A stretch of 64,000 bases of DNA from a virus (taxonomy: Duplodnaviria > Caudoviricetes): the IMG/VR virus record IMGVR_UViG_3300033145_002422. One strand, 5' to 3'. Each line of letters opens with the position of its first letter. Within the stretch, counting starts at the first letter, position 1. Under the pieces are notes generated by a model, which had not been told where the DNA came from, did not search any database, and saw nothing but the letters and a program-made list of their open reading frames with translations. Below, in pieces: positions 1 to 15,110 of this stretch. The translations under genes and the position numbers were made by a program.

Positions 1-253
1 GAGTTTTCATTAAGGGTCGAAATTGATGGAAAAGTAAGAAATTTGCAACGTAGAAAGTTTTGCTTAGAATGCAGTCCTTTTGGAAAGCACAATACTAGCA
101 AAACACCTATTAAGCAAGGATAAGATCGATAAGGGAGAAGCAGAAGATACCACCGAAGAAGTTCCTGAGCCGTTGGAAATGATAGAAGCACCTGAAAAAT
201 AAAAGAAATTCTGATAAAATATAACATAGGCCACTAATTAAAAGGAGAAATAA

Positions 254-412
254 ATGGCAAGAAATTTACATAAAGATCCCAGCATACGTCAAAAAAATGA
301 CGCTAGTAGTATTAGTAGTAAAAGAGGAATGGCTCGTAGAGCAAAGAGAAATAGCAATAAAAGAGATAGGCAGTTGCTTAAAAAGGAAAAAGAAAATGAA
401 ATTCGTTCTTGA
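254..412 (+). CDS. small basic hypothetical protein (52 aa)
   Basis: AAGGAG RBS then ATG; MARNLHKDPSIRQK... Confidence 0.55.
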   Translation: MARNLHKDPSIRQKNDASSISSKRGMARRAKRNSNKRDRQLLKKEKENEIRS

Positions 413-581
413 AATCAAAGGCGAGAATCCTCAGCATATTGCTAGGATTTTGAAGGCTATTTCAGAAGGCATTAACTGCTTGGACGACCTCAACTCTAAA
501 CTTCCCACAATTGATTTGGAAAAAGTTACCCTTAAATGGAAAGATATAGAATACGATATGCTGGATTGTCTAAATCCTTAA
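396..581 (+). CDS. hypothetical protein
   Basis: AAGGA RBS before internal ATG (MKFVLEIKGE) of ORF 297..581. Confidence 0.55.
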   Translation: MKFVLEIKGENPQHIARILKAISEGINCLDDLNSKLPTIDLEKVTLKWKDIEYDMLDCLNP

Positions 582-663
582 AAGAAAAAAAGAACTTCGC
601 AGCAGAAGGGTTCATAACACCTGAAAACAATTTAAGAATCATTGAATCAGAAAGGGGATTGCA

Positions 664-858
664 ATGGAAAAGTCACAGATAGTCCAAATGCTTCGGCCGA
701 TTGAACCTCCAGTTATCAGCGATGATTCTTTAACATTCTTTTTGGGATTGAAGAATACTTCTTGCACTTGTTGTGGGAGTCCTCTCATGGCTCAGGAGCA
801 TGTTGCAGCGGTTGTTTGTCACCGATGTCAACACTTGTTTTTGGGAATGATTATTTAA
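664..858 (+). CDS. small Zn-ribbon-like protein
   Basis: CxCC...CxxC pattern; GGGGA RBS. Confidence 0.55.
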   Translation: MEKSQIVQMLRPIEPPVISDDSLTFFLGLKNTSCTCCGSPLMAQEHVAAVVCHRCQHLFLGMII

Positions 859-940
859 TAACATCTAACCTAAAGAGAATGGCGTTTTTATTTTACCCGA
901 CAGAAAGAAAAAGAAAGTGTTGGTATACACCTGATTTCTC

Positions 941-968
941 TTGCAATAAGTTAAAAGAATAGTATAAT
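941..968 (+). promoter_or_regulatory. sigma70-like promoter upstream of tRNA-Gln
   Basis: TTGCAA(941)-N16-TATAAT(963). Confidence 0.55.
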
Positions 969-992
969 AGAAAATATGGGAGAGTAACAAAT

Positions 993-1069
993 GAGTCGCT
1001 AACTCAATTGGTTAGAGTATCTGCCTTTGAAGCAGAAAGTTCCCAGTTCGATCCTGGGGCGACCTACCA
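993..1069 (+). tRNA. trnQ: tRNA-Gln(TTG)
   Basis: Cloverleaf: acceptor GAGTCGC/GCGACCT (one mismatch), D arm ACTC/GAGT, anticodon stem TCTGC/GCAGA with loop CT-TTG-AA, T arm CCCAG-TTCGATC-CTGGG, encoded CCA. Confidence 0.92.
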
Positions 1070-1121
1070 TGTAACACCTGATTTTTCTTTGAAATAAATG
1101 ATAGCAACTAAGGAGAAACGA

Positions 1122-1316
1122 ATGAGACCTGCTACAGGGTTTGCAATGACAAAGGCAAATGAGCATTTGTTCAAGGAAGATAATAGTCCTGAAAATAGTT
1201 CAGGTCAAGGATGGATCAGTATTGGGTTCCAGATTGCCATTGGATTCTTTTTATTCCAACTGCTTTTAGCGATCCCTATTGCTTTCATTTATAGGATTGT
1301 TTGTTTGGCTAAGTAG
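1122..1316 (+). CDS. small membrane protein
   Basis: AGGAG RBS; C-terminal hydrophobic helix. Confidence 0.6.
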   Translation: MRPATGFAMTKANEHLFKEDNSPENSSGQGWISIGFQIAIGFFLFQLLLAIPIAFIYRIVCLAK

Positions 1317-1522
1317 ATAATTCAAGGGAGAAGAACGATGAGAAAAATTAGGGAAAGAAATCAGCATGTACCAATAGAACCAAAAGAGAATCAGTGGTTG
1401 AAAATATTGAAAGTAATAGGTTTTATATTAATTGTATTCTCTACATTGTTTGTTGGATTGATGTTAGGAATAAAATTGTATTACAATTGATTTTCACCAC
1501 CACAACATTAAAGGAGAATCGC

Positions 1523-1741
1523 ATAAAGATTGGTCGAAATGATAAGTGTCCTTGCGGAGCAAAGGGTGCAAACGGCAAGCCGTTGAAGTACAAGCACTGT
1601 TGCCTTCCTGAGCAGCAGCAAGCAGCATTGGAAGCCAAGAAGCTGCGTATTCAGCAATGGAAAGAAGGCAAGCATGATATGTCACCTGAAACTCAGGCGA
1701 CATTGGCTGCAATGGTTTCAAGGGCGCAGATGTACCACTAA
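1523..1741 (+). CDS. SEC-C (SecA metal-binding motif) protein; start uncertain (ATA after AAGGAG)
   Basis: KIGRNDKCPCG...KYKHCC is the SEC-C motif. Confidence 0.7.
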   Translation: MKIGRNDKCPCGAKGANGKPLKYKHCCLPEQQQAALEAKKLRIQQWKEGKHDMSPETQATLAAMVSRAQMYH

Positions 1742-1751
1742 GGAGAAAACA

Positions 1752-1976
1752 ATGGGCATGGGATTTAGTGGTGGTGACGAAGATGAATTTCTCGATAAAA
1801 AGGATAAGTATAGCGATAGGGAATCTTCCTATCCATCGGTTTCATGTGCGGTAACTTCATGTTCCAACAATCGGTATGGAAGTTGCCATAAAGTTTCTGC
1901 AATTCAAATTGACTCCTCAGGAGTTTGTCAATCCGCCAGCAAGTCGTTGGCTGATAACGATGATCGTCATTGGTAA
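1752..1976 (+). CDS. Cys-rich small protein
   Basis: AGGAG RBS; VSCAVTSCSNN...C...C; stop 4 nt before motif. Confidence 0.6.
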   Translation: MGMGFSGGDEDEFLDKKDKYSDRESSYPSVSCAVTSCSNNRYGSCHKVSAIQIDSSGVCQSASKSLADNDDRHW

Positions 1977-2060
1977 GGACACCTGAAAAATGCGACGAAG
2001 AATCAAAATTGTTCTGTTGACGATTGCGGCATTAATTGCTCTCTGTTGAAAGGAAAGACT

Positions 2061-2333
2061 GTGGGATGGTCATGTGCAAAAGCAGCCGGTGACGTAATGG
2101 ACAAGTGGACAAATACTTGTCTTGCCAACAGTGGTTCGCAGAATCAATGGTCGGAAAAGGGCAAGACATATTTCTTTGAGCATACCAGAAAAGACCATAG
2201 GGACGGAGCAATCTGCGGTTCGATTTGGCGGTTCCTGCCGGATGGTGTCCATGTCCGAAGGAGCGGAACTTTCCGTATCAATGGCAATGGGACTATTGAC
2301 AGAGCGCCGAAGTTTCTCAAGGATGCCACCTGA
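2061..2333 (+). CDS. hypothetical protein
   Basis: AAAGGA RBS + GTG (MGWSC...); TGA stop is part of CACCTGA. Confidence 0.6.
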   Translation: MGWSCAKAAGDVMDKWTNTCLANSGSQNQWSEKGKTYFFEHTRKDHRDGAICGSIWRFLPDGVHVRRSGTFRINGNGTIDRAPKFLKDAT

Positions 2334-2489
2334 AAAAGATAAGTAAAAAGTAGGAGTATAGGGAGAAGGGGCAAAGGACTTAACTCGTAGTTATGTTCCT
2401 TTGCTTCAAGCTCCCACTGTTAAGAGATAATCCATGAGTTACACGCTGAATACCCAATAAGCGATGAAGAATGGATTGGCATAAAAGTT

Positions 2490-2750
2490 ATGTGCCGCTC
2501 AAATGAAGATGAGCCTTTAAGGGTTGGGATTCTTAAAGGTTTTGATACGTTTCCAAATTTCTCCATTCCAATAGTTGAAGATAAAAACGGTAAAACATGG
2601 GGCACCATGGGCGAAATTTGGCCCTATGAAGAAGAAATTTATCAAGTTCTTTTGAAACTTTCACCTGAAAAGCAATACGAATTTATTGTCAAAGTAAGGT
2701 TAATGGGCCGTATGTTGGAAAGAGCAAGGGCTAAAGGAGACAAGTTATGA
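2490..2750 (+). CDS. hypothetical protein
   Basis: co-oriented ORF in array; start uncertain. Confidence 0.5.
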   Translation: MCRSNEDEPLRVGILKGFDTFPNFSIPIVEDKNGKTWGTMGEIWPYEEEIYQVLLKLSPEKQYEFIVKVRLMGRMLERARAKGDKL

Positions 2751-2880
2751 TTGAAAGCAATGACCTTGAAGAAATGGTCAAGATTTGTGCCGAACTCACA
2801 CGTCAAAGCATTATCTTCACCTGTGAAAAGGTTGGAAGCGGCTGGAATATCCACTGTACTGGATTCTAAGGAGAATTTAG

Positions 2881-3234
2881 ATGAAATCAGGTCCACTAGG
2901 TCCAGAAGTTTCTCATGATTTAGGTGAACCACCGTGCTGTAATTTCTATCTCTTGTATGTGAAAGGTAAGGGATGGGCAAGGGGTTTTATCGTTGCTGCT
3001 GAGAATGAAAACGATGCTGTGAAAAGATTGCGGCGGAACTATAAAAAACTTGCCGAATCTATCAAATCTGAATTTCCGGGAAAAACAGATGGAGATTCAT
3101 GGAATAAGAAGTATATTTATGGCGAAAGATATGAAAGAGCAATAGAATGTATCGAACTCATTGACAAAGGATGTTACACTGCTTCAATCCTTCGCAACGA
3201 TATGGCTTATGAAGTAAGTTATTTTGATTATTAA
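2881..3234 (+). CDS. hypothetical protein
   Basis: AAGGAG RBS, 117 aa ORF. Confidence 0.65.
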   Translation: MKSGPLGPEVSHDLGEPPCCNFYLLYVKGKGWARGFIVAAENENDAVKRLRRNYKKLAESIKSEFPGKTDGDSWNKKYIYGERYERAIECIELIDKGCYTASILRNDMAYEVSYFDY

Positions 3235-3241
3235 GGAAACC

Positions 3242-3709
3242 ATGAAAAAGAAAACTATTAGAGTCGCTCTGCTTGTTGATGGTGATGATGAAATCACCCT
3301 TAATGAAGAATACTCATATCTTGAAAGCTATCTTAAAGAGCTAGAACGATATAACAATGTTGAATGCCAATTTGTTAGGGGAGTTAAGCCTGGCAATATT
3401 GATGGATTTGATATGTATGTTTTTGATTACGGTGGAGCTGATCTTGGTTTTGCTGGGCAGAAAGGAGCCAGCTATGGAATGATTCGTCTTGTCGCTAAAG
3501 ATATTGAGAATCTTCCTAATACTCTTTTCATTATCAATAGTCGTATGTCTACAATTGATTATGAGAACTATATTGAGGATGAAAATCCAGAACTTGCTGA
3601 TGTTTATAATGTTCATATTGAAACCAAATTTGCAGACACCCATTTTCTTCCTTTTATAGAAAAATGGTTTGGATTGTCACCTGAAAAATCTTCTAAAAAA
3701 AGAAAGTAA
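3242..3709 (+). CDS. hypothetical protein (possible receiver/flavodoxin-like fold)
   Basis: AAGGA RBS; VALLVD...DMYVFDY pattern only weakly reminiscent of receiver domains. Confidence 0.55.
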   Translation: MKKKTIRVALLVDGDDEITLNEEYSYLESYLKELERYNNVECQFVRGVKPGNIDGFDMYVFDYGGADLGFAGQKGASYGMIRLVAKDIENLPNTLFIINSRMSTIDYENYIEDENPELADVYNVHIETKFADTHFLPFIEKWFGLSPEKSSKKRK

Positions 3710-3721
3710 AGGAGAACTGAA

Positions 3722-3940
3722 ATGTTCCACTTACATAAATGGGAACAGATTTGTACTGGCGTATGTGTTGCAACTCATGCTTCAATTCTTTTCAGGCAGA
3801 ATTGGACAGAGGATACAGTTTTGACTGTTCAACGATGCAAGAAGTGCGGAAAAGAAAGAGCATACCAAGAAGATATGGATGGTAGAAAGAGTAAAATATC
3901 TACCGTTTATGCCAAGGAAATTTTGAGGTATAAAGAGTAG
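3722..3940 (+). CDS. small Zn-binding protein
   Basis: HLHKW...QRCKKCGKE; AGGAG RBS; motif directly after TAG. Confidence 0.65.
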   Translation: MFHLHKWEQICTGVCVATHASILFRQNWTEDTVLTVQRCKKCGKERAYQEDMDGRKSKISTVYAKEILRYKE

Positions 3941-4243
3941 CACCTGATTTTTTATAAAAGGAATAGCAATCATGGATAAGCAGACTAATCACGCCAAATG
4001 AAAAGCATCTAATGAGACTCATTATGAAGGATAGGGATGCCGAAGGATGGGCGACAGTAAGTGCGATGGTATGGCCCCTGGTAGAGAAACTGCCTTTTAG
4101 CTTGATTGAACTGCAAAAAACAGATGATGGCGGCATGATCAGGCTGACGCATGATGGAGAAGTTGTTATGAATTGGAGTTAGTTCTTCCACCTGAAAATC
4201 TTTCCGAATAAGTTAATCTGTCACCTAACTGAAAGAAAAAACC

Positions 4244-4423
4244 ATGAAAGCCATATGCAAAAATTGTCATTATTGGGAAAGAGGCGATGAAAAACAAATT
4301 CCTTATAATGGAAAGACTATTTTCAAGCAGAATGAAATGGGGATTTGTTTTACTGATCCTCAAGAAGTAGAAACGCAAGACTGTTGCCCTGCTTGTCGTC
4401 ATTTTCGTGCTATTGGCACCTGA
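4244..4423 (+). CDS. Cys-rich small protein (59 aa)
   Basis: MKAICKNCHYW...CCPACRHF; TGA stop inside CACCTGA. Confidence 0.6.
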   Translation: MKAICKNCHYWERGDEKQIPYNGKTIFKQNEMGICFTDPQEVETQDCCPACRHFRAIGT

Positions 4424-4472
4424 AAATCTTTCCGAAAAAACTAATTTGTCACCTAACCGAAAGGACTCGAAA

Positions 4473-4835
4473 ATGTTCAATCCCACCGATCTTGCAAACT
4501 TTTACGGTACGGAACACTATTATCGTCATTCTTTTGGTAAGATGGTTATGACAGATGGTGCTATGCACTTGTTCGTAAACGGCGCAGGTTGGTTAATGGA
4601 TGCTATTGCCAGCTACCAAGAGGCGAAGTTGGATCGACAAACAAAAGGCTTTCAGCTTTGGATTTTGAAGGTGAACGCCGACAATTCGGCGGTTCTTACT
4701 TGCCAGAGAGATAGTAACACTCTGAATCTGGTGGAGCAGAAAATCGAATATACCGATTTCCCCATGTCGGAAATCAAGTTGTATGTTGAAGGAGAAGGTG
4801 GTCAGAGGGTTTGCCTTCTGACTTCGGAACATTAA
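4473..4835 (+). CDS. DUF6876-like phage/plasmid protein
   Basis: FYGTEHYYRH..TDGA...GWLMDAIASYQ...QKIEYTDFP signature. Confidence 0.7.
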   Translation: MFNPTDLANFYGTEHYYRHSFGKMVMTDGAMHLFVNGAGWLMDAIASYQEAKLDRQTKGFQLWILKVNADNSAVLTCQRDSNTLNLVEQKIEYTDFPMSEIKLYVEGEGGQRVCLLTSEH

Positions 4836-4846
4836 GGAGAATTGAT

Positions 4847-5074
4847 ATGTCGAAGAAAATGGAACGAGTTATTGCTGGTCTTTCCAGAAAAGGCCAAAAT
4901 GCAAGTGAAGTTGGCGACCTTGCCAAAATGATTCGCCATGATGTGGGTGAAGCTATTTCTAGGGGAGAGATTCCTAATGATATGAGTAGGTATAATGTTA
5001 TTGGGAAAATTGCTCAAGATTGCATCGACGCATGGCTTACAATCAATGACATTTTTTCTAGCGCGGATGATTAA
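4847..5074 (+). CDS. hypothetical protein
   Basis: AAGGAG RBS + ATG; motif 2 nt after stop. Confidence 0.6.
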   Translation: MSKKMERVIAGLSRKGQNASEVGDLAKMIRHDVGEAISRGEIPNDMSRYNVIGKIAQDCIDAWLTINDIFSSADD

Positions 5075-5106
5075 GCACCTGATTTTAACTTACGGAAAGG
5101 GACAAT

Positions 5107-5319
5107 ATGGAAATCGACCTAAACAATCCCACATCCTTTGCCTGTGATATTCTTGCAAAGGGAATCATCGCGGAATCAGTCACCAGCGGTCAACCTCTTG
5201 AAAAGGTAATCAGCAATCGGTTGCATAATATTCTCGACCATACATGGATTGATGATAAGATGAGGGATAACATCATCGAAAATGTTGCTACAGCTATGGA
5301 TATCGACATCATTGAGTAG
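5107..5319 (+). CDS. hypothetical protein
   Basis: RBS + ORF; motif directly after TAG. Confidence 0.6.
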   Translation: MEIDLNNPTSFACDILAKGIIAESVTSGQPLEKVISNRLHNILDHTWIDDKMRDNIIENVATAMDIDIIE

Positions 5320-5350
5320 CACCTGAAAAAATTGAAAAGTAAATACAAAT

Positions 5351-5478
5351 GCCCTATAGCTTAGTTGGTCAAAGCAATCCTATATCTATGCTTTGCTGCT
5401 AGCGTAAGGCCAAAAGGACTTGATCAGCCTTAGCGATATAGGAATAAGACGTTGGTTCGAACCCAGCTAAGGGCTTCA
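5351..5478 (+). ncRNA. tRNA-like RNA with greatly expanded anticodon arm
   Basis: GCCCT/AGGGC acceptor, D arm GCTT-AGTTGGTCA-AAGC, T arm GTTGG-TTCGAAC-CCAGC; anticodon arm is 9-bp TCCTATATC/GATATAGGA enclosing ~46 nt with inner TAAGGC/GCCTTA stem. Confidence 0.7.
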
Positions 5479-5545
5479 CAGTTTCACCTGAAAAAATCAA
5501 AAGAATGAGATGAATTGCCAATAATGACACCCAAAGGAGAAAACA

Positions 5546-6022
5546 ATGAGTACCGCAACAAAAAAGGTAACAAAAAAGGCACCGAGAAAGGTGATAAAGG
5601 TAACAAATGGGATGAAGGGAACGAAGGGTAGGACGGTTGTTGTCAAGTCTCTGAGTAATTTGGCGGCAATGGCTTTGTATAAGTTTCCGACACCAAAAGC
5701 GGCTCGTAAGAGTATGGCTGCTGGTGAGTATGCGGTTGATGAAACCATTCGCATCGTTGGAACCGTCAAAATTGGCAAGGATTATGAGCAGAGTAATATC
5801 GCTGCTCTGCCGATGATGAAGTTGATAATGCAGTTGGGAAGTCAGATTTCCCAAAAACGGTTGATCGAAATGTTATCGCCTGCTGCTCTTGAGGCGATTT
5901 CCGATAAAGATTCCGAAGATTTTTCGAAGCGAATTCAGGCGGAATGGGGTAAGTTGGCTAAAACGCAGAAAAAGACCTTTGTTGGCAAGGTCACAGCAAA
6001 GCTGAATTTCACGAAAGCGTAA
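5546..6022 (+). CDS. Lys-rich hypothetical protein
   Basis: AAGGAG RBS, 158 aa. Confidence 0.7.
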   Translation: MSTATKKVTKKAPRKVIKVTNGMKGTKGRTVVVKSLSNLAAMALYKFPTPKAARKSMAAGEYAVDETIRIVGTVKIGKDYEQSNIAALPMMKLIMQLGSQISQKRLIEMLSPAALEAISDKDSEDFSKRIQAEWGKLAKTQKKTFVGKVTAKLNFTKA

Positions 6023-6107
6023 ACCACAAAAGGGGAGATTGGGGAACTTTCAGACCTAATCTCCCTATAAATATTTCACCTGATTTTTTCCCACCGAAAG
6101 GGAAAGT

Positions 6108-6290
6108 ATGAAATACGAACTCCGAAAAGACCTTACTCCTTAAGCGGTAAGGCTTACGATACGGTCTTTTCTAATGGACTTGGGGAATATAAATGTGGAT
6201 TATATGACCACATTGGAACTCCGTTTCCTTCGTGCTCTGGCAGAAGATGCCCCTAAAAAAATACATGGGATAGATTGGCCCAATGGATAA
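6108..6290 (+). pseudogene. small ORF interrupted by in-frame TAA at 6141
   Basis: RBS+ATG MKYELRKDLTP*AVRLTIR...WPNG*, ending 2 nt before CACCTGA. Confidence 0.5.
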
Positions 6291-6340
6291 TTCACCTGAA
6301 AGTTTTTGCAAAATCTTTGTTATATTGAAAGGGTAAGGAG

Positions 6341-6853
6341 ATGCAGAATGGCACCGTTCTTGTTATCATTGATATGCAAGTTGTCTTCTATCATCGTGGA
6401 TTAAAAAGATGGGATAATTCCCCGGAAGGAATGAAGGAGAAATGGACAAGTACAGTCAAGTCTATTTGTCAAGAAATTCGTCAAGCAAAAGAAAACCTCA
6501 TTCCTATCCTTGTTGTTGAATATGAATATTGTAATATGAATGACAAAACAAAGAAAACCGATGGCAGAATTCGTCAAGTTATTGGTAAGTATTTATATGT
6601 CAAGTATGTTCCCAAGACCAGCGATGATGGTTCTGCGGAAATCACAAAGACTCTGAAAAATATGGATTGGGTTGCTGAACAATTTCGTATCTGCGGAGCC
6701 AATCGCTGTTGCTGCGTTGCCGCCACCGTTAGAGGTCTATCACAGAAACATATAGAATCAAAGATCCTTCTTGTTGATAAGGCAATCACAGATGAACATA
6801 ATGAAATGGGCTGGGCTGGGGCAACCATGTTACCTAATACCATGATTGTCTAA
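6341..6853 (+). CDS. isochorismatase/cysteine hydrolase family protein
   Basis: VLVIIDMQ, K-x-S-D-D-G-S and ICGANRCCCVAAT catalytic motifs. Confidence 0.8.
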   Translation: MQNGTVLVIIDMQVVFYHRGLKRWDNSPEGMKEKWTSTVKSICQEIRQAKENLIPILVVEYEYCNMNDKTKKTDGRIRQVIGKYLYVKYVPKTSDDGSAEITKTLKNMDWVAEQFRICGANRCCCVAATVRGLSQKHIESKILLVDKAITDEHNEMGWAGATMLPNTMIV

Positions 6854-6910
6854 TCACCTGAAATTTCGTTTCTTTAATATGCCTTGTCCTCTAGCCGAAA
6901 GGAAGCGAAG

Positions 6911-7066
6911 ATGGGAAAGGTTATCAAGAACAAAACGCCGAAAAATTGGGATGCGCTCGACGCCGAAGCTGAATCGCAAGGCATCGCCATTCTCGCCGCA
7001 AATGTTGCCAGGGCTATGCCATTCGGTAAAGGCAAAAAGCTGGGGCATCATCTAAGTCGAGTTTAA
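6911..7066 (+). CDS. small basic hypothetical protein
   Basis: AAAGGA RBS + ATG (MGKVIKNK...). Confidence 0.5.
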   Translation: MGKVIKNKTPKNWDALDAEAESQGIAILAANVARAMPFGKGKKLGHHLSRV

Positions 7067-7191
7067 AGGGGCGACCGAAACCTCTTTTCATAAAAAGGGA
7101 GGCTAGCGGACTATTTCCCTAGCCTCTCTACGGTTTTTCACCTGAAAACTTCCATTGATAATTTGTATTGTCCTAACGAAAGGAATTCAAG

Positions 7192-7428
7192 ATGTTTGAC
7201 GAACTCGTAATGCTCCATGCAGACCTCCGTTTGACAAATCGGGCGATGGCTGTTCAACGTTGCAGCAACGTCAAGCCGTTTCTAAGCGACCGCATCCAAG
7301 ACGCAATTGATGAGGGTCTTGTATATGTCGATGATGGTATGGGTTCAATGCTCCCACAGTTTCGTCTTACCGAAACTGGCGCAGAGTCGATGGCAGATAT
7401 GGAATGCTGCCTGATGGAAAGCTATTAA
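7192..7428 (+). CDS. hypothetical protein (possible winged-helix)
   Basis: EGLVY...FRLTETG resembles wHTH wing; RBS present. Confidence 0.55.
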   Translation: MFDELVMLHADLRLTNRAMAVQRCSNVKPFLSDRIQDAIDEGLVYVDDGMGSMLPQFRLTETGAESMADMECCLMESY

Positions 7429-7475
7429 GCCACCTGAAAAAAGAAAAGAAGTTGTTGCATTGTTCTTTGAAAACT

Positions 7476-7708
7476 GGAAGTCGGTCGCCTAGTAAGGGCT
7501 AGTCGGCAAACGAGCGCGCATCGTATTTGTCGATGAAATATTTTAATTTAATAGCTACTGTGGGAATCAGACATTAGCGGCAAGGCAGTTTAAGAGAGTT
7601 ACCTTGCATAATGAAGTCTAAGGACTTGCTATCCTAAGACAACTCTCTAAAGGGTGAAAACCTTCTACGCCAATGCGATGCGTAGTGGTTCAGTCCCTTC
7701 CGACTTTT
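7476..7708 (+). ncRNA. structured RNA with tRNA/tmRNA-like closing helices and a pseudoknot
   Basis: AAGTCGG(7478)/CCGACTT(7700); 12-bp helix 7516-7527/7672-7683; GGTTCAGTCC T-loop-like; crossing stems GCAAGG/CCTTGC and AGAGAGTT/AACTCTCT; GGT-GAAA-ACC tetraloop. Confidence 0.6.
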
Positions 7709-7979
7709 ATATTTTTTTTCACCTGAAAAAAGAAAACAAAAAAGAGAAGCGTTGAGAGAAGGCAGTATATTGTAGCAGTAAAAGGTTAAAGACATTGTAA
7801 ATTAAAAATAGAAAGGGGGTATGTTCTATTGACCTAACATGAGATTTGAGATAATGAAGAAAACACATATTGATGTTTGGCTAATGTAATGGAGTCAAGC
7901 CGTCCTAGCAATAAACGCTGGGGCAGCTGTAGTTTTTCACCTGAAAAACTAATCTTTCTTTGTAAATCATAAGGAGAAA

Positions 7980-8192
7980 ATGATGATTAAGGGAAAGTGT
8001 CTCACCAATTTGGATGATTACGATTTTGTGGAGTGGCCCACAGAATTCGTAGCCGTTCCGAAAATCGGCGATAGGGTAGAAAATGATAGCTTTGAAAATG
8101 ATCGTCGTGGAATCTTAAAAGTTGTTCGTATCACTCACTGTTATAATTGGAAAAGCAAAAAAGCATTTATAAAGATTGAACTGAACAAGTAG
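7980..8192 (+). CDS. hypothetical protein
   Basis: AAGGAG RBS; VPKIGDRVE...LKVVRITH; motif directly after TAG. Confidence 0.65.
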   Translation: MMIKGKCLTNLDDYDFVEWPTEFVAVPKIGDRVENDSFENDRRGILKVVRITHCYNWKSKKAFIKIELNK

Positions 8193-8239
8193 CACCTGAT
8201 TTTCCGATAGGATATTCATAATCAAAGGAGAATCGAATC

Positions 8240-8461
8240 ATGGCGAAGAAACCTAGCAGAGAAATTCCGACTTCCTTAACATTCATAATGAATGACCTTT
8301 CTCGTAAAGATATGAGAGTAGGCCAGATGTTCAGCAATCTGTTTTACTTCATTCGTAGCAAGGGCAAAGACCCTTTCTATGTTGAGAATGAAGAAATGGT
8401 GGGGCTGTTTCTTGAATCCCTTGCCGATAGCGGTTATAATCCGTTTCGGCCTGGCCAATAA
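8240..8461 (+). CDS. hypothetical protein
   Basis: DMRVGQM...DPFYVENE pattern typical of small phage proteins; RBS. Confidence 0.65.
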   Translation: MAKKPSREIPTSLTFIMNDLSRKDMRVGQMFSNLFYFIRSKGKDPFYVENEEMVGLFLESLADSGYNPFRPGQ

Positions 8462-8509
8462 TCACCTGATTTTTCGCTCTATCAAACAATGTTGAAAGGG
8501 GGAACTGAA

Positions 8510-8644
8510 ATGAATAGTATGAAGCGGAGATACTCTGGCCTTACGTTGGTCGAGTTAATGGCAGCAGTTTGGGCTATTATTTTGTTGGTTTTTGCTGCTG
8601 GCGTTGTTTGGGTTGCTATCCATTTCATTAGCAAATTTTGGTAG
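8510..8644 (+). CDS. 44-aa mini-pilin with prepilin cleavage/methylation motif
   Basis: MNSMKRRYSG|LTLVELMAAVWAIILLVFAAGVVWVAIHFISKFW* (basic leader, G at -1, E at +5, hydrophobic helix); not in ORF track (<60 aa). Confidence 0.75.
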   Translation: MNSMKRRYSGLTLVELMAAVWAIILLVFAAGVVWVAIHFISKFW

Positions 8645-8694
8645 CACCTGAAATGCTGTGGAAAAAATAGCAATAGCTACAAAGGAGAATTAAG

Positions 8695-9021
8695 ATGAAA
8701 AATTTTCTGCGGAAGTTGGTTTTAAGCAATCCCACGGCCTATTCCGATCTCAAAGTCGAAGCATTGGATTTACTGCTGGCATTGGAAAGCGAAGCGAAGC
8801 TGACAATCGCTGAACTCCGTAAGAAAAAGACGATTCTACGATTTGGTATTACCGAATTCCAGTACAGCGAAGTACAAAATGCTTTGTTTGAGAAAAATGA
8901 TCAGTGGAATACTCGAAAGATTATTGCTATCAAGTTAATGCGAGCATATGCTAATCTCGGACTTAAGACAGCGAAAGAAGCTGTTGAAAACGATGAGTAT
9001 TTTGTTAAGCCGCTCACCTGA
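8695..9021 (+). CDS. ribosomal L7/L12 C-terminal-like domain protein
   Basis: KIIAIKLMRAYANLGLKTAKEAVEN matches the L7/L12 CTD pattern KIxxIKxxRxxxxLGLKEAKxxVE. Confidence 0.7.
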   Translation: MKNFLRKLVLSNPTAYSDLKVEALDLLLALESEAKLTIAELRKKKTILRFGITEFQYSEVQNALFEKNDQWNTRKIIAIKLMRAYANLGLKTAKEAVENDEYFVKPLT

Positions 9022-9046
9022 AAAAATATCAATGGAGATTGAATCC

Positions 9047-9250
9047 ATGGCCGACGATTTTAAAAAGAAGATTTGTAAAGACCCGAAACTTGCCGCTGGT
9101 GGACATGATAATAATGGTTATAGATCCTACTGCACTTGTTGCGGGATTGAGCATCGTAGCCGATATGCTGGCCGTTATCGCAAGTTGTATCGTCGGAGGG
9201 CGCGACGGTCTTTGAAGCAGAACGCTAATTTCTCACCTGAAAATGATTAG
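9047..9250 (+). CDS. Arg-rich small protein
   Basis: GGAG RBS + ATG; CTCC motif; ends ...SPEND by reading through motif. Confidence 0.5.
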   Translation: MADDFKKKICKDPKLAAGGHDNNGYRSYCTCCGIEHRSRYAGRYRKLYRRRARRSLKQNANFSPEND

Positions 9251-9283
9251 AGATTCTTTCATACACCACTGAAAGGAACTTCA

Positions 9284-9787
9284 ATGTCGTATCTACCACT
9301 TAATACTGATAGAATTATATCCATGAGACAAAATATTGATTCGGCATTACACGCGATGCTTGATGAAGGCATTGAATTTGATGCTATCGTCATTCGTGGT
9401 ATGAGCGGAGCCTTATTCGCTCATTACGTTTTTGATAAAACTGGCAAGCCGATTGTTGTTGTTCGTAAAGGCGAATCTTCTCATGGTAGAGATGTAGAAA
9501 TTCCCTATCCTTCCAACATTAAGAAATATATCATTCTTGATGATTTGGTTGCATCTGGGAATACAATTATTTCCATAAAACAAAAAATGGATGAAATGCC
9601 ATTCAAAAGCAAAGCGTATGATTTTGAGTTGGTTGCTATCGTTTTATATGGTAGTGCGCCGATTGAAAGCGATCCTAATTACAATGCTTGGGGAATCGCT
9701 GGGCTGAAGGGAATACCCATCTTCACATTCCAAGGGCGTAGGTATCATTATGATATGAGTCCGTCACCTGAAATGGCAGAGGTTTAA
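9284..9787 (+). CDS. type I phosphoribosyltransferase-like protein
   Basis: YIILDDLVASGNTI PRPP-binding motif; VVVRKGESSHG. Confidence 0.8.
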   Translation: MSYLPLNTDRIISMRQNIDSALHAMLDEGIEFDAIVIRGMSGALFAHYVFDKTGKPIVVVRKGESSHGRDVEIPYPSNIKKYIILDDLVASGNTIISIKQKMDEMPFKSKAYDFELVAIVLYGSAPIESDPNYNAWGIAGLKGIPIFTFQGRRYHYDMSPSPEMAEV

Positions 9788-9877
9788 GGATAAGAGGGTA
9801 GGTTATCAAGGAGTCATGGAAATTTCCAATCTCCGTAACCTATCCTCACCTGTTTTTTTCGCTAAAAAGGAAATAGT

Positions 9878-10099
9878 ATGAAAAATGAGGAAATCGAAAT
9901 TCTCGTTCAAGCCTTTGAAAAAATGGGCAAGAAAATAACTCGTTGGATGGCTGGCCCATTGATGCTTGAAGCATATTTCACTTCGACTAATGGCAATACC
10001 ATTGTTATCAATGCTGATGGTATTACCGAAGTCAAAGGCAAATACGGCAAGGAATTTGAGTGCGACGAAAGCGAATTCGTCGGTAGTATCGAAGTCTAA
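9878..10099 (+). CDS. hypothetical protein
   Basis: AAGGA RBS; motif 3 nt after stop. Confidence 0.55.
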   Translation: MKNEEIEILVQAFEKMGKKITRWMAGPLMLEAYFTSTNGNTIVINADGITEVKGKYGKEFECDESEFVGSIEV

Positions 10100-10155
10100 T
10101 CCACCTGATTTTTCTTTTGTAACTCTTGCAATAACCCCAAACCGAAAGGAAAAAG

Positions 10156-10371
10156 ATGCACAAGCTAACCTACAATGTTGTCGGAAACAAGATGTTCGCG
10201 GTTTGCGTCGCGTGCGGCACGCGGGCCAGCGTCAAGATGAGCGGTCGTATGACGGAGCGGAAGGGGATTAACTACAATCATGCCACTGCGAAGGCGAAGC
10301 TGTACGGTCACCTGATGGCTTCCGTTTGCAGCAAGGTGCCGGTGCCTGCGATTTTTCCGCTGATTGCCTAA
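10156..10371 (+). CDS. hypothetical protein (CxxC)
   Basis: AAAGGA RBS. Confidence 0.55.
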   Translation: MHKLTYNVVGNKMFAVCVACGTRASVKMSGRMTERKGINYNHATAKAKLYGHLMASVCSKVPVPAIFPLIA

Positions 10372-10631
10372 CCATGGAATAGGCTTGTCAGTTAAACTAA
10401 ACTGCGGCCTCTTAAGCCGAATGTGGGATGCAGCCCACCAAGCCCTATTTTTCACCTGAAAACTTTTCGCCAAAAGTAGGATCATCGGAAAGAACAAGCC
10501 ATGATAAATTACGAAACCTTTGGTCCGAGACACGCTGACGAAGTCCGAAGCGGAAAAGAAAAGAGGTGGCAGGCTAGCAGACGTGCGAGCAAGGGAAAAC
10601 TAACAGCCCGCGAAGGCAGAATGGAGCGAAC

Positions 10632-11387
10632 ATGAAAGCGAACATGAACCCGAAAGACCTACAAGAGGTGCTGCGTTTGCACGAATTGTGGCTGGCCGGT
10701 GACCCAGGGGGGAGCTGCGCCAACCTTTGCGGTGCCAACCTTTACCGCGCCAACCTGAGTGACGTCAATCTTTACGGTGCCAACCTTTGCGGTGCCAACC
10801 TTTACCGCGCCAACCTTTACCGCGCCAACCTTTGCCGCGCCAACCTGAACCGCGCCAACCTAAGCTATGCCAACCTTTACCGCGCCAACCTGAACCGCGC
10901 CAACCTGAGTGACGCCAACCTTTACCGCGCCGACCTGAACCGCGCCAACCTGAGTGACGTCAATCTTTACGGTGCCAAACTGAACCGCGCCAACCTGAGT
11001 GACGCCAACCTGAACCGCGCCAACCTGAACCGCACCAACCTGAGCAATGCCAACCTGAACCGCGCCAACCTGAGTGACGTCAATCTTTACGGTGCCAACC
11101 TTGATTATGCTTCATGGCCGTTGTGGTGTGGGTCGCTTACTGCAAAGATTGACCGCCAGATTGCCGCCCAACTGGCCTACCACTTGCTTTCTGTCTGGCC
11201 GGAAGAGCGTCACGGGTCGATTCTAACGCTGGCTAACGAGTTTCACCGCATCCCCAAGCTGCTGAAACTGAATGAAACCAAGGACTCCGACGGGCAGATC
11301 AGGCCGTGCGGCGCGAGGCGAAACGAGGACGACCTGCCGTCGTACGCGCCGCTTGGCTATCACGATTTGACGCCGGAGGATGAATAA
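10632..11387 (+). CDS. pentapeptide repeat protein
   Basis: ~25 A-N-L-x-x repeats, with LRLHELWL N-cap and WPLWCGSL C-cap. Confidence 0.9.
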   Translation: MKANMNPKDLQEVLRLHELWLAGDPGGSCANLCGANLYRANLSDVNLYGANLCGANLYRANLYRANLCRANLNRANLSYANLYRANLNRANLSDANLYRADLNRANLSDVNLYGAKLNRANLSDANLNRANLNRTNLSNANLNRANLSDVNLYGANLDYASWPLWCGSLTAKIDRQIAAQLAYHLLSVWPEERHGSILTLANEFHRIPKLLKLNETKDSDGQIRPCGARRNEDDLPSYAPLGYHDLTPEDE

Positions 11388-11568
11388 TATGTGCGCCGGG
11401 ATTCAGCGGATGCGAACCAAGGGCTGGATGATGCCGCCGGGAACGATCTACGTGGGACGCCCGACGCCGTGGGGCAACCCATTTCGAGTGGGGCCGGACT
11501 TGTCAGCGGCCCGCGCGGTCGATCTCTATCTTCAAACTATTCCCCAGATTCCGACAGCATACCTGTAG
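11380..11568 (+). pseudogene. truncated DUF4326-like protein
   Basis: IYVGRPTPWGNPF motif but no C-terminal LxCWC...CH part. Confidence 0.6.
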
Positions 11569-11701
11569 TCCATTTTGGGGAATGTGGGGGATCGAAATTC
11601 TTTGGCTTGGTCGAGAGATTTTTGTAGTTTTCGGCAAAGACAAAAACGGTTTTTACAAGTTGACCGATTACTAAGTCACCTGAAAAATAGGAGATAGAAG
11701 C

Positions 11702-11896
11702 ATGGCAAAGCGAATTGTAATAACAATCGAAGTTGTCAATGCAGCTTTCGATCCCACTGAAACCCTTGAAACAGCAAGGATTTTGACAGTCCTTCGCAAT
11801 ACTATTAGCATGCAACGAAATTTCAAAAGCGATGATTACTTCATGCTTTATGATGCTAATGGAAATACCGTCGGCGGCGCAAGCATCAAAGAATAG
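11702..11896 (+). CDS. hypothetical protein
   Basis: NAAFD...ETARIL...LYDANGNTVG pattern; motif directly after TAG. Confidence 0.65.
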   Translation: MAKRIVITIEVVNAAFDPTETLETARILTVLRNTISMQRNFKSDDYFMLYDANGNTVGGASIKE

Positions 11897-11966
11897 CACC
11901 TGAAAAAGAAAACAAATTACCACATTGTTCAAAAAGTAAAGAGTTGTTCAAAAAGTAAAGAGTTGT

Positions 11967-12067
11967 ACGGTTGAATTAAGGATTGACAAAAACTTAGCGG
12001 CTGCAACTGCTAAGATAACAAATCAATCCGCCTTTGCAGGGGAAAACGGCGTTTAGTCGTCAACCGT
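11967..12067 (+). ncRNA. putative structured RNA (nested stems)
   Basis: ACGGTTGA/TCAACCGT, GGATTGA/TCAATCC and CTTAGCGG/CTGCTAAG stems; no ORF. Confidence 0.45.
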
Positions 12068-12176
12068 TTTTATTAGGGGGGGGAGAGGATAGCCTTGATA
12101 AGGCACTCTCCCCTCTATTTTTCACTTGAAAAACAAACCAAAACCTTTAATATATACTAACCGAAAGGCAAAACAA

Positions 12177-12491
12177 ATGAAGATTCCGAATCGAAATAGG
12201 CCACGTCGAAAGCAAAGGCAAGAGGAAGCTGCGGAACGGCAAAAAGAAAGCGACAAGTTGACTCCGCTCCAGAAGTTTGCTAAGATTATCAAGCACAATC
12301 TCACCGCAATGAAGGAACGTAGCAAGCTACAGAAGCTCATTGATGCTGAAAAGGCATCGAAAGTCGAAACTGTCAAGGCGAAGGCACCTGATACCACCAG
12401 CGAAGCGGAGAAGGTTGCTAAGAAGGCGAAGAAGGCAGCGAAGCAGAAGCGGAAGGAAGCGAGGGACAAGGCGAAGTCTGCAAAGAAGTAA
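12177..12491 (+). CDS. Lys/Ala-rich basic (histone H1-like composition) protein
   Basis: KVAKKAKKAAKQKRKE...AKSAKK; RBS before ATG. Confidence 0.65.
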   Translation: MKIPNRNRPRRKQRQEEAAERQKESDKLTPLQKFAKIIKHNLTAMKERSKLQKLIDAEKASKVETVKAKAPDTTSEAEKVAKKAKKAAKQKRKEARDKAKSAKK

Positions 12492-12523
12492 AAGGCACCT
12501 GAAAACGAAAAAGAAATTGTAAA

Positions 12524-12719
12524 AGAGTTATGAGACTGCCGCTAGTCCATTCAAGAGGTTGGATAACGCTCTTGACGCATAATGTAGCGAGAAGCTAGTG
12601 GCAGTCTCAAATGTTTGGGCTGAGAGAGAAAGCGTCCAAGGCGACTCCGCTAAAATCCTTGGCAAAAAAATTAGGGCGGGTATTGACCTCCTAATTCTTG
12701 GTTGGATCGGTAGAACTCT
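12524..12719 (+). ncRNA. putative multi-stem structured RNA
   Basis: 15-bp helix 12531-12545/12595-12609 enclosing TCAAGAG/CTCTTGA; CCAAGG/CCTTGG; AATTAGG/CCTAATT; closing GAGTT/AACTC. Confidence 0.55.
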
Positions 12720-13084
12720 CACCTGAAAAAAGAAAGAATCTCAAAGAGTTATAATGTATGGGAAGTTATGATGGGGAGCGAGAGATTTTTGGCAACGATT
12801 GTTTGAATAAGCTACCGCTTGTTTGCATAGCCGAATTTCTTTCGCTCTAATGTTTTATTTCACTTGAAAATTTTCCGAAAAAAGTAAAAACATGATAAGA
12901 TATTATGTTAAGAAAACGGATTTCAAAAAAGCTATTCAATTCTGCGAACAAAACAAAGTTTGGTGGGATTTGATATTTGACAATTCAAGGTATGAGTCTG
13001 AAAAGTATATTATTCTTCAGATGAATATACATGGTAGTAAAATGTTGTCAAACCACCTGAATTACCAATAGGAAAAAATAAACC

Positions 13085-13282
13085 ATGCTCACCAAAGAAT
13101 CCATACAAGCCTATATCAAAGCCCATGAATCATGCAACGATTTGCCTTGCCCATTCTGCGGACGGTTTGAAGTAAAACAGGGGGATAAGGATTCTGGCTG
13201 TTCTGTTGCTTCTACCACCTGTAGAAGTTGTGGAAAACGATGGAGAGAGTATTACACCCTTACTGGGATTGAGGAAGAATAG
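13085..13282 (+). CDS. Zn-ribbon protein
   Basis: CPFCG...CRSCGKRWREYY. Confidence 0.7.
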   Translation: MLTKESIQAYIKAHESCNDLPCPFCGRFEVKQGDKDSGCSVASTTCRSCGKRWREYYTLTGIEEE

Positions 13283-13609
13283 ATGAAGATAACCCACTGC
13301 GATTTTTGCGGCAAACTTCTCACCACCGAAGATTCTGGCAAAATCATGCACCATGAATATGTGGAAGGTTTGCCAGTTGATTTGATTCACTGTAAGGTTT
13401 GCGCCACGAAATATTATCCTGGCCCTTGGTACATCGAAGTTGGAAATTTCAGCAGGTATTGGCATATTCGTAATGCTATAACTGGCAAGCGAAAGAGGAT
13501 TGGAAAGGTACAAGCCAAAGGTGTTAATTATTTTGTAAAAGCAAAAGAGGAATGCGGACTAAGAAATCTAGCTCTTCACCTCAAGACTTGTGATGATATT
13601 CTCACCTGA
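13283..13609 (+). CDS. Zn-finger hypothetical protein
   Basis: CDFCG...CKVC; TGA stop inside motif. Confidence 0.65.
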   Translation: MKITHCDFCGKLLTTEDSGKIMHHEYVEGLPVDLIHCKVCATKYYPGPWYIEVGNFSRYWHIRNAITGKRKRIGKVQAKGVNYFVKAKEECGLRNLALHLKTCDDILT

Positions 13610-13647
13610 AAATCCTAAGCAGTAATCATAATCAAAGGAGAAACGAA

Positions 13648-13860
13648 ATGCTCAAGATCGGTGATAAAGTAAGAGTTAATGGAAATGAACTGCTTGAAGG
13701 AACAATTATCAGCGATCAATTCATCGTTCACGACGATCAGTTTGGCGATTTATCGCTCCAAGCAGTTCACTTGAAGCATGGTGGATGGCTTGACGAAAAC
13801 GAGAGTTGCTATATCTCTATGATCGTTGTTCACATCGACAACATGAAGAAAATCACCTGA
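13648..13860 (+). CDS. small SH3/KOW-like protein
   Basis: LKIGDKVRV...GTI; TGA stop inside motif. Confidence 0.6.
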   Translation: MLKIGDKVRVNGNELLEGTIISDQFIVHDDQFGDLSLQAVHLKHGGWLDENESCYISMIVVHIDNMKKIT

Positions 13861-13894
13861 TTTTTTCCGAAAAAAAGAAAAGTAGGAGAAAACC

Positions 13895-14083
13895 ATGAAA
13901 CTAAACGATCTGATTGATGAAGTCTACGGTGGCAAGCATCTTCGCAGAGGCAATAGGGGGCCGATTGCACGATTCAATGGTGACGATTTTTCTTTATGGT
14001 ATTACAGCAGACAAGATGGAAGAAAACTTTTCCCCATTACCTTCGGTGATATGATTGCAGAAAATTGGGAAGTTGTTTCCTAG
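13895..14083 (+). CDS. hypothetical protein (DUF2829/Tad2-like ending)
   Basis: GKHLRR...DMIAENWEVV resembles the DUF2829 C-terminus; weak. Confidence 0.5.
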   Translation: MKLNDLIDEVYGGKHLRRGNRGPIARFNGDDFSLWYYSRQDGRKLFPITFGDMIAENWEVVS

Positions 14084-14136
14084 AATCACCTGATTTTCTA
14101 TTCAAAAAGATCAATTCAACCAAAGGGAGCAAAACC

Positions 14137-14334
14137 ATGAAAATCAAATGCCTCAATTGCCATACGACCTTCGAGGGTGAAACAAAATCGAGTCTTAATG
14201 GCGAAGTTAAAGAAGAAAAGTTTGACTGCCCAAGCTGCGCTATTACCAACATCGTCGGAGAAGTTGATGATGAAGGCAATATTACCAACGGCGAATGCGG
14301 TTGGTACGGCGAAGAAGGAGAAGGCCATACCTAA
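14137..14334 (+). CDS. Zn-ribbon protein
   Basis: MKIKCLNC...FDCPSC; GGGAG RBS. Confidence 0.6.
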   Translation: MKIKCLNCHTTFEGETKSSLNGEVKEEKFDCPSCAITNIVGEVDDEGNITNGECGWYGEEGEGHT

Positions 14335-14550
14335 AGCTAATAGCAAATTCACCTGAAAACCGACAAAAGAAAGAAATAACATGAGCTGCCAAACAGAATA
14401 TAACGAACATAAAGAAATGTGTCTTAAGGGGGAACATGGCCCTTGGCAACTTTGCACGAGTGACTCTCTCGGAAGAACACTTCCTATGAGAATGTGTTCT
14501 TGGTGCGGAAGAGTGGAGTTCTTCAAACATGAGCAATGGGTTTAAGCGTA

Positions 14551-14765
14551 ATTCACCTGAAAAAACGACAAATAAGTAACAACATAAAGGAGAAAACAAT
14601 ATGGAAAGACTATGGGAATGTGAAGATTGCAGTTATCAAACCGAATGGTCGTATGACCAGCTTGCAGAACAAGGTGGACCAGTTTGCCCGAATTGCGATA
14701 ATGATATGGAGTTGCTACCACCTGATCTAGATTCACCTGAAAAAACGACAAATAAGTAACAACAT
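14551..14765 (+). repeat. 35-bp perfect direct repeat starting at the motif
   Basis: ATTCACCTGAAAAAACGACAAATAAGTAACAACAT at 14551-14585 and 14731-14765. Confidence 0.9.
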
Positions 14766-14870
14766 GGGAACAAACAAGAAAGAGATTCTGTTGAGCGTAC
14801 TGCTCGTTGTAGCCTTGGGGCTATTCATTCTCATGGTTGCAAACTGCTTATTGGCCACCTGAAAAACAGA

Positions 14871-15110
14871 ATGAAAGGAAAGCAGTATGAAAAAGACGAC
14901 ATTGAAAAAACCTTCCGTAGATTCAAGAAAAGCGACCAAGGGAGAGTAGCGTTGGTCCGATGGGATGACACTGGCCGAGAGGACATGATGATTCTCGAAG
15001 TTGACGACGATGGGAGAGAGGCAAAAGCCTTTCACTTTAGCGGTCGTTACATGCAACGAGTCACACATACACAAGTCTGTGAAATTGGAGGGTTTGTAAA
15101 GGTCGGTTGA
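14871..15110 (+). CDS. hypothetical protein, last ORF of the array
   Basis: 79 aa ORF immediately after last motif. Confidence 0.5.
   Translation: MKGKQYEKDDIEKTFRRFKKSDQGRVALVRWDDTGREDMMILEVDDDGREAKAFHFSGRYMQRVTHTQVCEIGGFVKVG

Follow-up and report, generated by a model that had tools for sequence, protein, structure and literature searches.

Among the described phage systems, the closest to the one reported here are the promoter-early stem-loop (PeSL) cassettes of T4-type phages. Each cassette (Arbiol et al. 2010, PMC2839356; Comeau et al. 2014, PMC4122927) spans ~50 bp, in which a GGGG...CCCC stem-loop is joined to a sigma-70-like promoter with its -35, its -10 and an AT-rich upstream region. 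When copies of this promoter/terminator cassette recombine with each other, ORFan units are deleted, inserted and circularised, and no dedicated recombinase takes part in it (PMC2839356, PMC4122927). A second point of reference is the host-takeover module of phage SPO1, a 12.4-kb terminal region that holds 26 small early genes, supplied with strong promoters and ribosome-binding sites of their own (PMC6873191, citing Stewart et al. 1998); the promoters are of the host sigma-A consensus type. In this study we analysed the first 64,000 nucleotides (hereafter the window) of a 255,885-bp metagenomic contig from an uncultured phage, IMG/VR record IMGVR_UViG_3300033145_002422, in which the heptamer CACCTGA recurs on one strand through a 15-kb array of small genes and small RNAs (Table 1). 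We propose, with about as much confidence for as against, that the heptamer and the A/T run following it form the core of a class-specific single-element promoter cassette that would also be a recombination hot spot, and that would resemble T4 PeSLs without being sigma-70-like.

CACCTGA occurred 46 times in the window, compared with 2.8 ± 1.8 expected copies (largest count 9) in dinucleotide shuffles. One copy lies on the - strand at 45552. The other 45 all lie on the + strand between 189 and 14862, where the - strand carries none, and no + strand copy was found in the remaining 49 kb beyond 14862. The initial annotation of this DNA had reported about 45 + strand copies in 14.7 kb, none on the - strand of the array and none on the + strand of the other 49 kb, and our count per strand bears this out: with 45 copies against 0 in the array, the strands are not equally frequent. 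It had also noticed an A or T tract after nearly all copies, and indeed, of the three positions 3' of the heptamer, the first was A or T in all 45 copies, the second in 43 and the third in 41. The run is A-type in 32 copies and T-type in 13; at -1 and -3 there is a weak preference for T. The copies at 10309, 12385 and 14719 have no A/T run and may be chance occurrences or relics. When the sites were anchored on the motif, information content was limited to offsets 0 to +9, that is to the heptamer and the next three bases. Only three one-mismatch variants were seen in functional-looking places (9847, 12123 and 12861), and the heptamer is therefore almost invariant. The 45 exact copies and 3 variants make 48 sites in 15 kb, or one per ~320 bp.

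Three related contigs were found by homologue search with the open reading frame (ORF) at 5546-6022: L121 (7.3 kb), L122 (2.2 kb, a near-copy of part of L121) and L123 (9.1 kb). A fourth, L182, was found via a homologue of the first backbone gene and comes from the same ENA sample as L121. They carry CACCTGA 19, 7, 20 and 3 times, respectively, on the + strand and 0 times on the - strand. L121, L122 and L123 have 41-43% GC and are collinear with the window, with proteins of 55-85% amino-acid identity; at orthologous boundaries of the related arrays the heptamer is retained and its flanks have diverged. L182 starts with three CACCTGA-headed units of 44-48% GC, followed by the same structured junction and a backbone of 27% GC. 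Its positions 676-763 matched window 15197-15325 with 75-84% identity (blastn), and its low-GC genes past the junction are 82% identical to window 16530-17047, with only the HNH gene at 15368-16168 missing. The break in composition is kept in both assemblies, between 1-15110 and 15368-64000 in the window and between 1-650 and 1000-12834 in L182. Because an independent assembly carries the same junction, between an array of 40-48% GC and a backbone of 27% GC, we concluded that the array and its junction with the backbone are real phage DNA and no assembly artefact.

The motif belongs with the downstream unit and not, as the initial annotation had it, with the upstream one. A copy was located at most 80 nt before the start of 34 of the 44 ORFs, and at the stop of 26 of them. 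Ten ORFs had no upstream motif; eight of these begin within 32 nt of the previous ORF and are operon-internal, and the other two (2490 and 10632) follow a motif-led non-coding stretch. The last array ORF has a motif ahead and none behind, in the window as well as in L182. Ungapped identity between orthologous sites was 1.0 over the motif, 0.74-0.87 at +7 to +10 and mostly 0.55-0.77 at +12 to +23, compared with 0.4-0.65 upstream. Similarity between paralogous copies in the window was likewise confined to the downstream side, where nine pairs (for example 4189/4417 and 14554/14734) share at least 18 of 30 bases; upstream no pair did. The relations to stop codons had been described correctly: the motif provides the TGA stop of seven ORFs, sits 0-8 nt past the stop of fourteen, and in eleven copies lies 7-107 nt inside the preceding ORF (1683, 2662, 3678, 9234, 9765, 10309, 12385, 13054, 14719, 14734 and, by frame, 14350). 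One in-ORF copy encodes an S-P-E codon triplet in a SEC-C-like protein and is conserved across all three arrays (window, L121 and L123). Such copies are normal for a promoter and harmful for an RNA end or cut. The tight fit between stop codon and motif is best read as compaction; as nothing functional lies upstream of the heptamer, the previous gene runs up to or into it.

Differences between units were read from a three-way alignment of the window, L121 and L123 together with the flanks. Five insertions or deletions (indels) ran exactly from motif to motif: L123 3436-3769, L121 2738-3304 (the isochorismatase unit), L121 6764-7064, and in the window 3941-4416 (two units with near-identical leaders) and 5076-5319. 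In addition, the last two array units stand in opposite order in the window and L182. The array is thus modular, as had been claimed. The related suggestion, that breakpoints of gene gain and loss fall in CACCTGA, held for these five indels and failed for at least four others without motif bounds (L121 363-631, L121 2295-2503, window 386-615 and window 2459-2715), which ran from ribosome-binding site to ribosome-binding site (or gene edges) or touched a motif at just one of their ends. Overall, indels without motif bounds make up about half of the total. Because the pattern matches that of T4 PeSLs, which need no dedicated recombinase, we treat recombination here as a probable by-product of the repeated word.

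The PeSL analogy drawn in the initial annotation proved to be the closest known system. In both cases short conserved regulatory words flank ORFans in one orientation within a hyperplastic region, related phages vary in that units with edges inside the elements have been inserted, deleted or replaced, and a terminator-like hairpin sometimes stands just upstream of the element. A hyperplastic ORFan region with element-bounded indels was found in the window, L121, L123 and L182; a sigma-70-like early promoter was not found at the heptamer sites. The array differs from PeSLs in that it has an invariant heptamer with an A/T run and no -35/-10 pair, hairpins at only a handful of sites, a density of one site per ~320 bp, and a base composition foreign to the rest of the genome.

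Single-element class promoters are known from other viruses, such as the T4 late promoter TATAAATA, which is read by gp55, and the Mimivirus early octamer AAAATTGA. The arrangement in the array is alike: one short, near-invariant word, with no -35 partner, stands ahead of tens of genes of one temporal class, here ahead of 34 of the 44 ORFs. The sequences are unrelated, however, and the word of the array is confined to a 15-kb block, whereas the other two are genome-wide; in contrast to T4, the window yielded neither a viral polymerase nor a factor resembling gp55. As a start-proximal element without a -35 partner the heptamer would be comparable to T4 late promoters or to those of single-subunit polymerases. 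The distance from motif to ATG peaked at ~24 and at ~40-45 nt, with a minimum of 18 and a range up to 80 nt, and any start site must therefore adjoin the motif. No second conserved element at a fixed distance, and no -35/-10 pair, was detected among 84 sites anchored on the motif. A-run and T-run are swapped at orthologous sites (window 4417 compared with L121 4171 and L123 7480), an interchange that fits duplex DNA, by A-tract or melting, better than RNA. The 50 nt 3' of the motif are less structured than random windows (-4.6 vs -7.3 kcal/mol), as expected of leaders. Sigma-70-like promoters were not enriched (46 vs 34 ± 7 expected), so that something else must drive the ~35 units. Only one good sigma-70-type promoter per array was found directly after a motif (window 941-968, L121 1485 and L123 8047), and the design of the one in the window recurs behind the motifs L121 1472 and L123 8024.

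From the position, strictness, conservation, downstream polarity and unit-wise variation of the heptamer we infer promoter activity, the place of the start site and the kind of reader as follows. In this reading, a huge phage carries at one genome end a hyperplastic array of accessory genes, in which the heptamer would stand at the head of every expression unit. Such a unit would be either a leader followed by one, two or three small genes, or else a single small RNA. A protein recognising duplex CACCTGA would position RNA polymerase and the adjacent A/T run would melt, with transcription starting within ~12 nt, in or just past the run, to give leaders of ~15-60 nt that bear a strong Shine-Dalgarno site. 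The candidate reader would be either a phage sigma-like or activator factor that works together with the RNA polymerase of the host, or a polymerase of the phage itself whose gene lies outside the window. The 7-12 bases recurring in one orientation at every unit boundary would serve as microhomology for phage recombination, by which whole units could be deleted, inserted, duplicated and re-ordered.

Several observations weigh against the promoter proposal, a reading that the initial annotation had not put forward. Searches of the window turned up no RNA polymerase and only one sigma factor, which is FliA/WhiG-like; the sigma-28 consensus is unlike the heptamer. Seven invariant bases at 45 of 48 sites are stricter than most sigma-type promoter elements, and a T-run followed by C would impose a pyrimidine start in 13 units. 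Moreover, a conserved small ORF (window 1990, also in L121 and L123) begins 3-4 nt past the motif and has its Shine-Dalgarno site upstream of it, so that transcripts must also read through the motif.

Some narrower assignments were rejected. As a -35, -10, extended -10, extracytoplasmic function (ECF) sigma element or MotA box the motif has no fixed-distance partner, and the shortest leaders, of 18-25 nt, are too short to hold one. Mimicry of the 16S 3' tail (UCACCU) that would sequester the Shine-Dalgarno site was dismissed by inspection, with only 3 bp of pairing to AAGGAG or GAAAGG. Type III restriction orientation bias, Chi-like, nicking and packaging sites do not account for enrichment at gene boundaries within one block. 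A leaderless start at 14871, which would pin the start site, was not robust, as an out-of-frame, Shine-Dalgarno-preceded ATG stands at 14887 beside an A6 run.

The heptamer could instead be an oriented site in duplex DNA at which a regulator of the phage would silence the array or set its timing, a roadblock or operator at each boundary, with transcription driven by a few host-type promoters such as 941-968. We regard this as unlikely. Cluster A mycobacteriophages carry stoperators, asymmetric sites of 13-14 bp that occur genome-wide and are tied to the immunity repressor, and Cluster K phages carry start-associated sequences (SAS) at a fixed few bases before the start codon; there are 10-35 such sites per genome. 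The sites of the array are similarly asymmetric, one-oriented and multi-copy near gene boundaries. Their strictness and presence at nearly every boundary would suit an operator, the tolerance for either run would suit minor-groove contacts on duplex DNA, and each array has its one good sigma-70-type promoter behind a motif. A roadblock, however, need not precede every unit nor be missing after the last. Hairpins followed by a T-run stand before the motif at 6077, 7139, 7720, 7938, 10453 and 12123 only, none of which passes a canonical terminator scan, and such internal ends would halt one long transcript. The site is also shorter than a stoperator, at 7-10 bp, lies 18-80 nt from the start, numbers 48 in 15 kb and, rather than being genome-wide, is confined to 189-14862 on the + strand of the window, in which no repressor or integrase was seen. 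We keep this explanation in view because the conserved small ORF at 1990 is translated from RNA that spans the motif.

A site that acts in RNA is similarly improbable in our judgement. RegB acts on T4 early mRNAs, and like it an endoribonuclease or RNA-binding protein could cut long early transcripts at CACCTGA, free the tRNAs and small RNAs, or shut the array off. The strictness is typical for an enzyme site, the motif stands 5-9 nt past tRNA-type genes and after hairpins, and host-type promoters are few. Yet with eleven sites inside the preceding ORF and seven providing its stop codon, cutting would remove stop codons and yield non-stop mRNAs, A-run and U-run are not equivalent in RNA although they are swapped at orthologous sites, and the last unit has no 3' site. 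The RNA-processing site listed in the initial annotation is disfavoured on these grounds.

The same annotation had offered a recombination core for cassette capture. Integron attC sites are 57-141 bp long, with imperfect inverted repeats and RYYYAAC ... GTTRRRY cores, and are found at the 3' end of the cassette ORF; IntI is absent in clusters of attC sites lacking integron integrases (CALINs), and Qi et al. are said to have described phage-borne CALINs in 2023. The array shares with them one-oriented runs of small ORFs, stops that abut or overlap a conserved site, and variation by whole units between relatives. It differs from them by lacking R''/L''-L'/R' inverted repeats, a GTTRRRY core and, in the window, an integrase, and by a site that goes with the downstream gene, whereas attC goes with the upstream one. 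We give little credence to the idea that the heptamer is the core of a phage-borne cassette exchange, integron-like without attC hairpins, which would trade micro-genes and small RNAs of foreign composition and in which the word would double as an expression signal. A dedicated capture system, a functional analogue of the integron in which an unseen recombinase inserts and excises gene-sized cassettes at a crossover core, is in our view very improbable. The five exact motif-to-motif indels, the swap of unit order between the window and L182 and the foreign composition (GC at third codon positions, GC3, of 0.44 vs 0.19) would be explained by it. On the other hand, the array held 0 attC-type core pairs, compared with 3.1 ± 2.5 in shuffles, and no inverted motif copy. 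No hairpin was found at the motif, and the minimum free energy around it was not below that of random windows. Seven bases without flanking binding sites are too short for known tyrosine or serine recombinase sites, and no recombinase, including one of the IntI-type tyrosine family, was detected among the ~60 window ORFs scanned, as the initial annotation had remarked. Ribosome-binding sites or gene edges, and not motifs, form the bounds of at least four indels, and ordinary recombination at a repeated regulatory word suffices, as for PeSLs (PMC2839356).

A factor-dependent termination signal at unit 3' ends is hardly credible: the motif does stand at the stop of 26 of the 44 ORFs and 13 copies have a T-run, but no hairpin or terminator-like site coincides with it, 32 copies have an A-run, some are situated within ORFs by as much as 107 nt, no copy follows the last gene, and the promoters of ~35 units would be left unexplained.

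Table 1. Coordinates of the array, its heptamer sites and the features discussed, numbered from the first base of the window.
Feature	Coordinates	Strand	Description
Array	1..15110	+	~44 small ORFs, 2 tRNA-type genes, ~8 structured non-coding units, single strand
CACCTGA starts	189, 618, 928, 1075, 1683, 1980, 2327, 2662, 3678, 3941, 4189, 4417, 5076, 5320, 5485	+	
CACCTGA starts (continued)	6077, 6293, 6855, 7139, 7431, 7720, 7938, 8193, 8463, 8645, 9015, 9234, 9765, 10102, 10309	+	
CACCTGA starts (continued)	10453, 11677, 11897, 12385, 12496, 12720, 13054, 13603, 13854, 14087, 14350, 14554, 14719, 14734, 14856	+	
CACCTGT variant	9847..9853	+	T-run after; 24 nt ahead of ATG 9878
CACTTGA variant	12123..12129	+	A-run after; 47 nt ahead of ATG 12177; hairpin and T5 run before
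CACTTGA variant	12861..12867	+	A-run after; 24 nt ahead of ATG 12892
Sigma-70-type promoter	941..968	+	TTGCAA, 16 nt, TATAAT; score 10/12; 6 nt past motif 928; upstream of tRNA
tRNA-Gln(UUG) unit	993..1069	+	Next motif (1075) starts 5 nt past encoded CCA
Structured non-coding unit	2334..2489	+	Motif-headed; conserved in L121 and L123; fold z -3.8
tRNA-like gene	5351..5475	+	~50-nt insert in anticodon arm; motif 5320 ahead, motif 5485 behind
Two successive non-coding units	7438-7719, 7727-7937	+	Motif-headed; T-run directly before next motif; z ~ -1.6
Non-coding units	11904-12122, 12503-12719, 12727-12860	+	Each motif-headed; fold z -3.6 to -4.1
Last two array units	14764..15110	+	Small membrane ORF 14764-14862; ORF 14871-15110
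Array/backbone junction	15111..15367	+	Structured, fold z -4.7; conserved in L182

Besides ORFs the array contains tRNA-type genes and non-coding units. One motif-bounded slot is occupied by tRNA-Gln(UUG) in the window, by tRNA-Lys(UUU) in L121 (1724-1799) and by an intron-split tRNA-Lys in L123 (4540-4825), the anticodon loop of the latter being split by a group I intron (Rfam RF00028, 60.5 bits, L123 4566-4758). The tRNA-like gene is conserved in three arrays (window, L121 4862-4998 and L123 8359-8482) with Rfam tRNA scores of 30.7-43.7 bits, the lowest of which is that of the window; ARAGORN made no call for this gene. Folds far stabler than those of shuffles (z -3.1 to -5.8) were obtained for 2334-2489, 6023-6076, 7067-7138, 10372-10452, 11904-12122, 12503-12719 and 12727-12860. 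The non-coding units matched no Rfam family at E up to 1. Several of them have in common an AAAGAGTTRT box ~20 nt 3' of the motif, and they close with a hairpin and T-run right ahead of the next motif. The ORF at 12177-12491 is placed between two such units, 11904-12122 and 12503-12719.

The array is truncated by the start of the contig, which falls inside an HNH endonuclease gene. The GC content of the array is 0.38-0.51 compared with 0.25-0.34 in the backbone, and the difference sits in synonymous sites, with GC3 of 0.436 and 0.188, respectively. TAG stops were found in 11 of 43 array ORFs and in 0 of 14 backbone ORFs, which use almost only TAA. The array seems to draw on a gene pool separate from that of the backbone. 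For most array ORFs no Pfam or PHROG family was found; those with a family are isochorismatase-like, PRTase-like, DUF6876, pentapeptide-repeat and L7/L12-C-like. The gene of the pentapeptide-repeat protein (10632-11387) has 51% GC and is the richest stretch of the window. At 1523-1741, the conserved SEC-C-motif gene shows ATA in the window at the place of the ATG start of L121 and L123; all three have the AAGGAG site ahead of it. Within the last gene of the array, 14871-15110, the ATG at 14887 is shifted by one base relative to the reading frame of the conserved ORF and lies close to the A6 run at 14905-14910; this could reflect a homopolymer assembly error or a slippage site.

The backbone genes in the window include a terminase (56151-58025), intein-bearing ribonucleotide reductase and helicase genes, a dUTPase, a lysozyme and glycan enzymes, and the window belongs to a large (huge) phage. 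A sigma factor at 41160-41984 has its best similarity to FliA/WhiG (NCBIfam E 2e-51, below the curated cut-off), which suggests that the phage uses the host core polymerase. Intein signatures were seen in an SNF2-type helicase (35441-39832), an AAA+ ATPase (45291-46322) and the large subunit of ribonucleotide reductase (46389-50045), with a LAGLIDADG motif in the intein of the helicase and an endonuclease-like stretch in the reductase. Next to the array junction, the low-GC HNH-type endonuclease gene at 15368-16168 is present in the window and missing at the equivalent place in L182; it is adjoined by a repeated ~65-nt element with copies at 16169-16230 and 16405-16487. Gene and repeats together look like a homing-type insertion.

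Further arrays were not found, among the matches listed, in GenBank phages, IMG/VR, GTDB genomes and one metagenome scan. Megablast and blastn against GenBank phages gave DNA relatives limited to tRNA and HNH fragments. Pattern scans of IMG/VR and GTDB (TTTCACCTGAAAAA; triplets of motifs spaced by 215-245 nt; pairs of A-type motifs spaced by 190-220 nt) returned no true array among the matches listed, which were chance occurrences, coding tandem repeats (spacing in multiples of 9) or unrelated longer repeats. A metagenome scan with a SEC-C-like protein profile returned generic SEC-C motif proteins only, and an IMG/VR search with a protein profile of ORF 5546-6022 returned nothing. The terminase relatives L118 and L119 (55% identity) and the 485-kb phage LR745208.1 have no array. 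Positions 1-13 of L123 are an Illumina adapter remnant (GCTCTTCCGATCT), ~170 nt ahead of the first gene, which may mark a fixed physical DNA end near the array start. Together with the contigs that end in the array (the window and L182), this remnant suggests a terminal position of the array.

In size, in gene size and possibly in terminal position the array resembles the SPO1 module, and in modular plasticity it resembles the PeSL regions. Both it and the SPO1 module are blocks of similar size that contain tens of very small genes and in which Shine-Dalgarno sites are strong and internal promoters numerous, those of the array being putative. The SPO1 promoters are of host type, whereas only one such promoter was seen per array here, where the signal is the invariant heptamer. 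From both the SPO1 module and the PeSL regions the array differs in signal, density, the many small RNAs and foreign composition. If CACCTGA is a promoter, it would define for huge phages a new class of single-element promoter, one of unusual strictness, and would imply a further factor or polymerase that reads the heptamer. The array would then amount to a catalogue of ~50 accessory genes under shared control, together with at least 8 small RNAs, whose probable use is in takeover or counter-defence. Indels and changes of order that involve whole units widen the PeSL idea, that regulatory words double as recombination sites, past the T4-like phages and to another signal. Finally, evolution of the array as a gene pool separate from the backbone is suggested by the sharp composition break, which both independent assemblies retain; this would bear on how huge phages acquire novelty.

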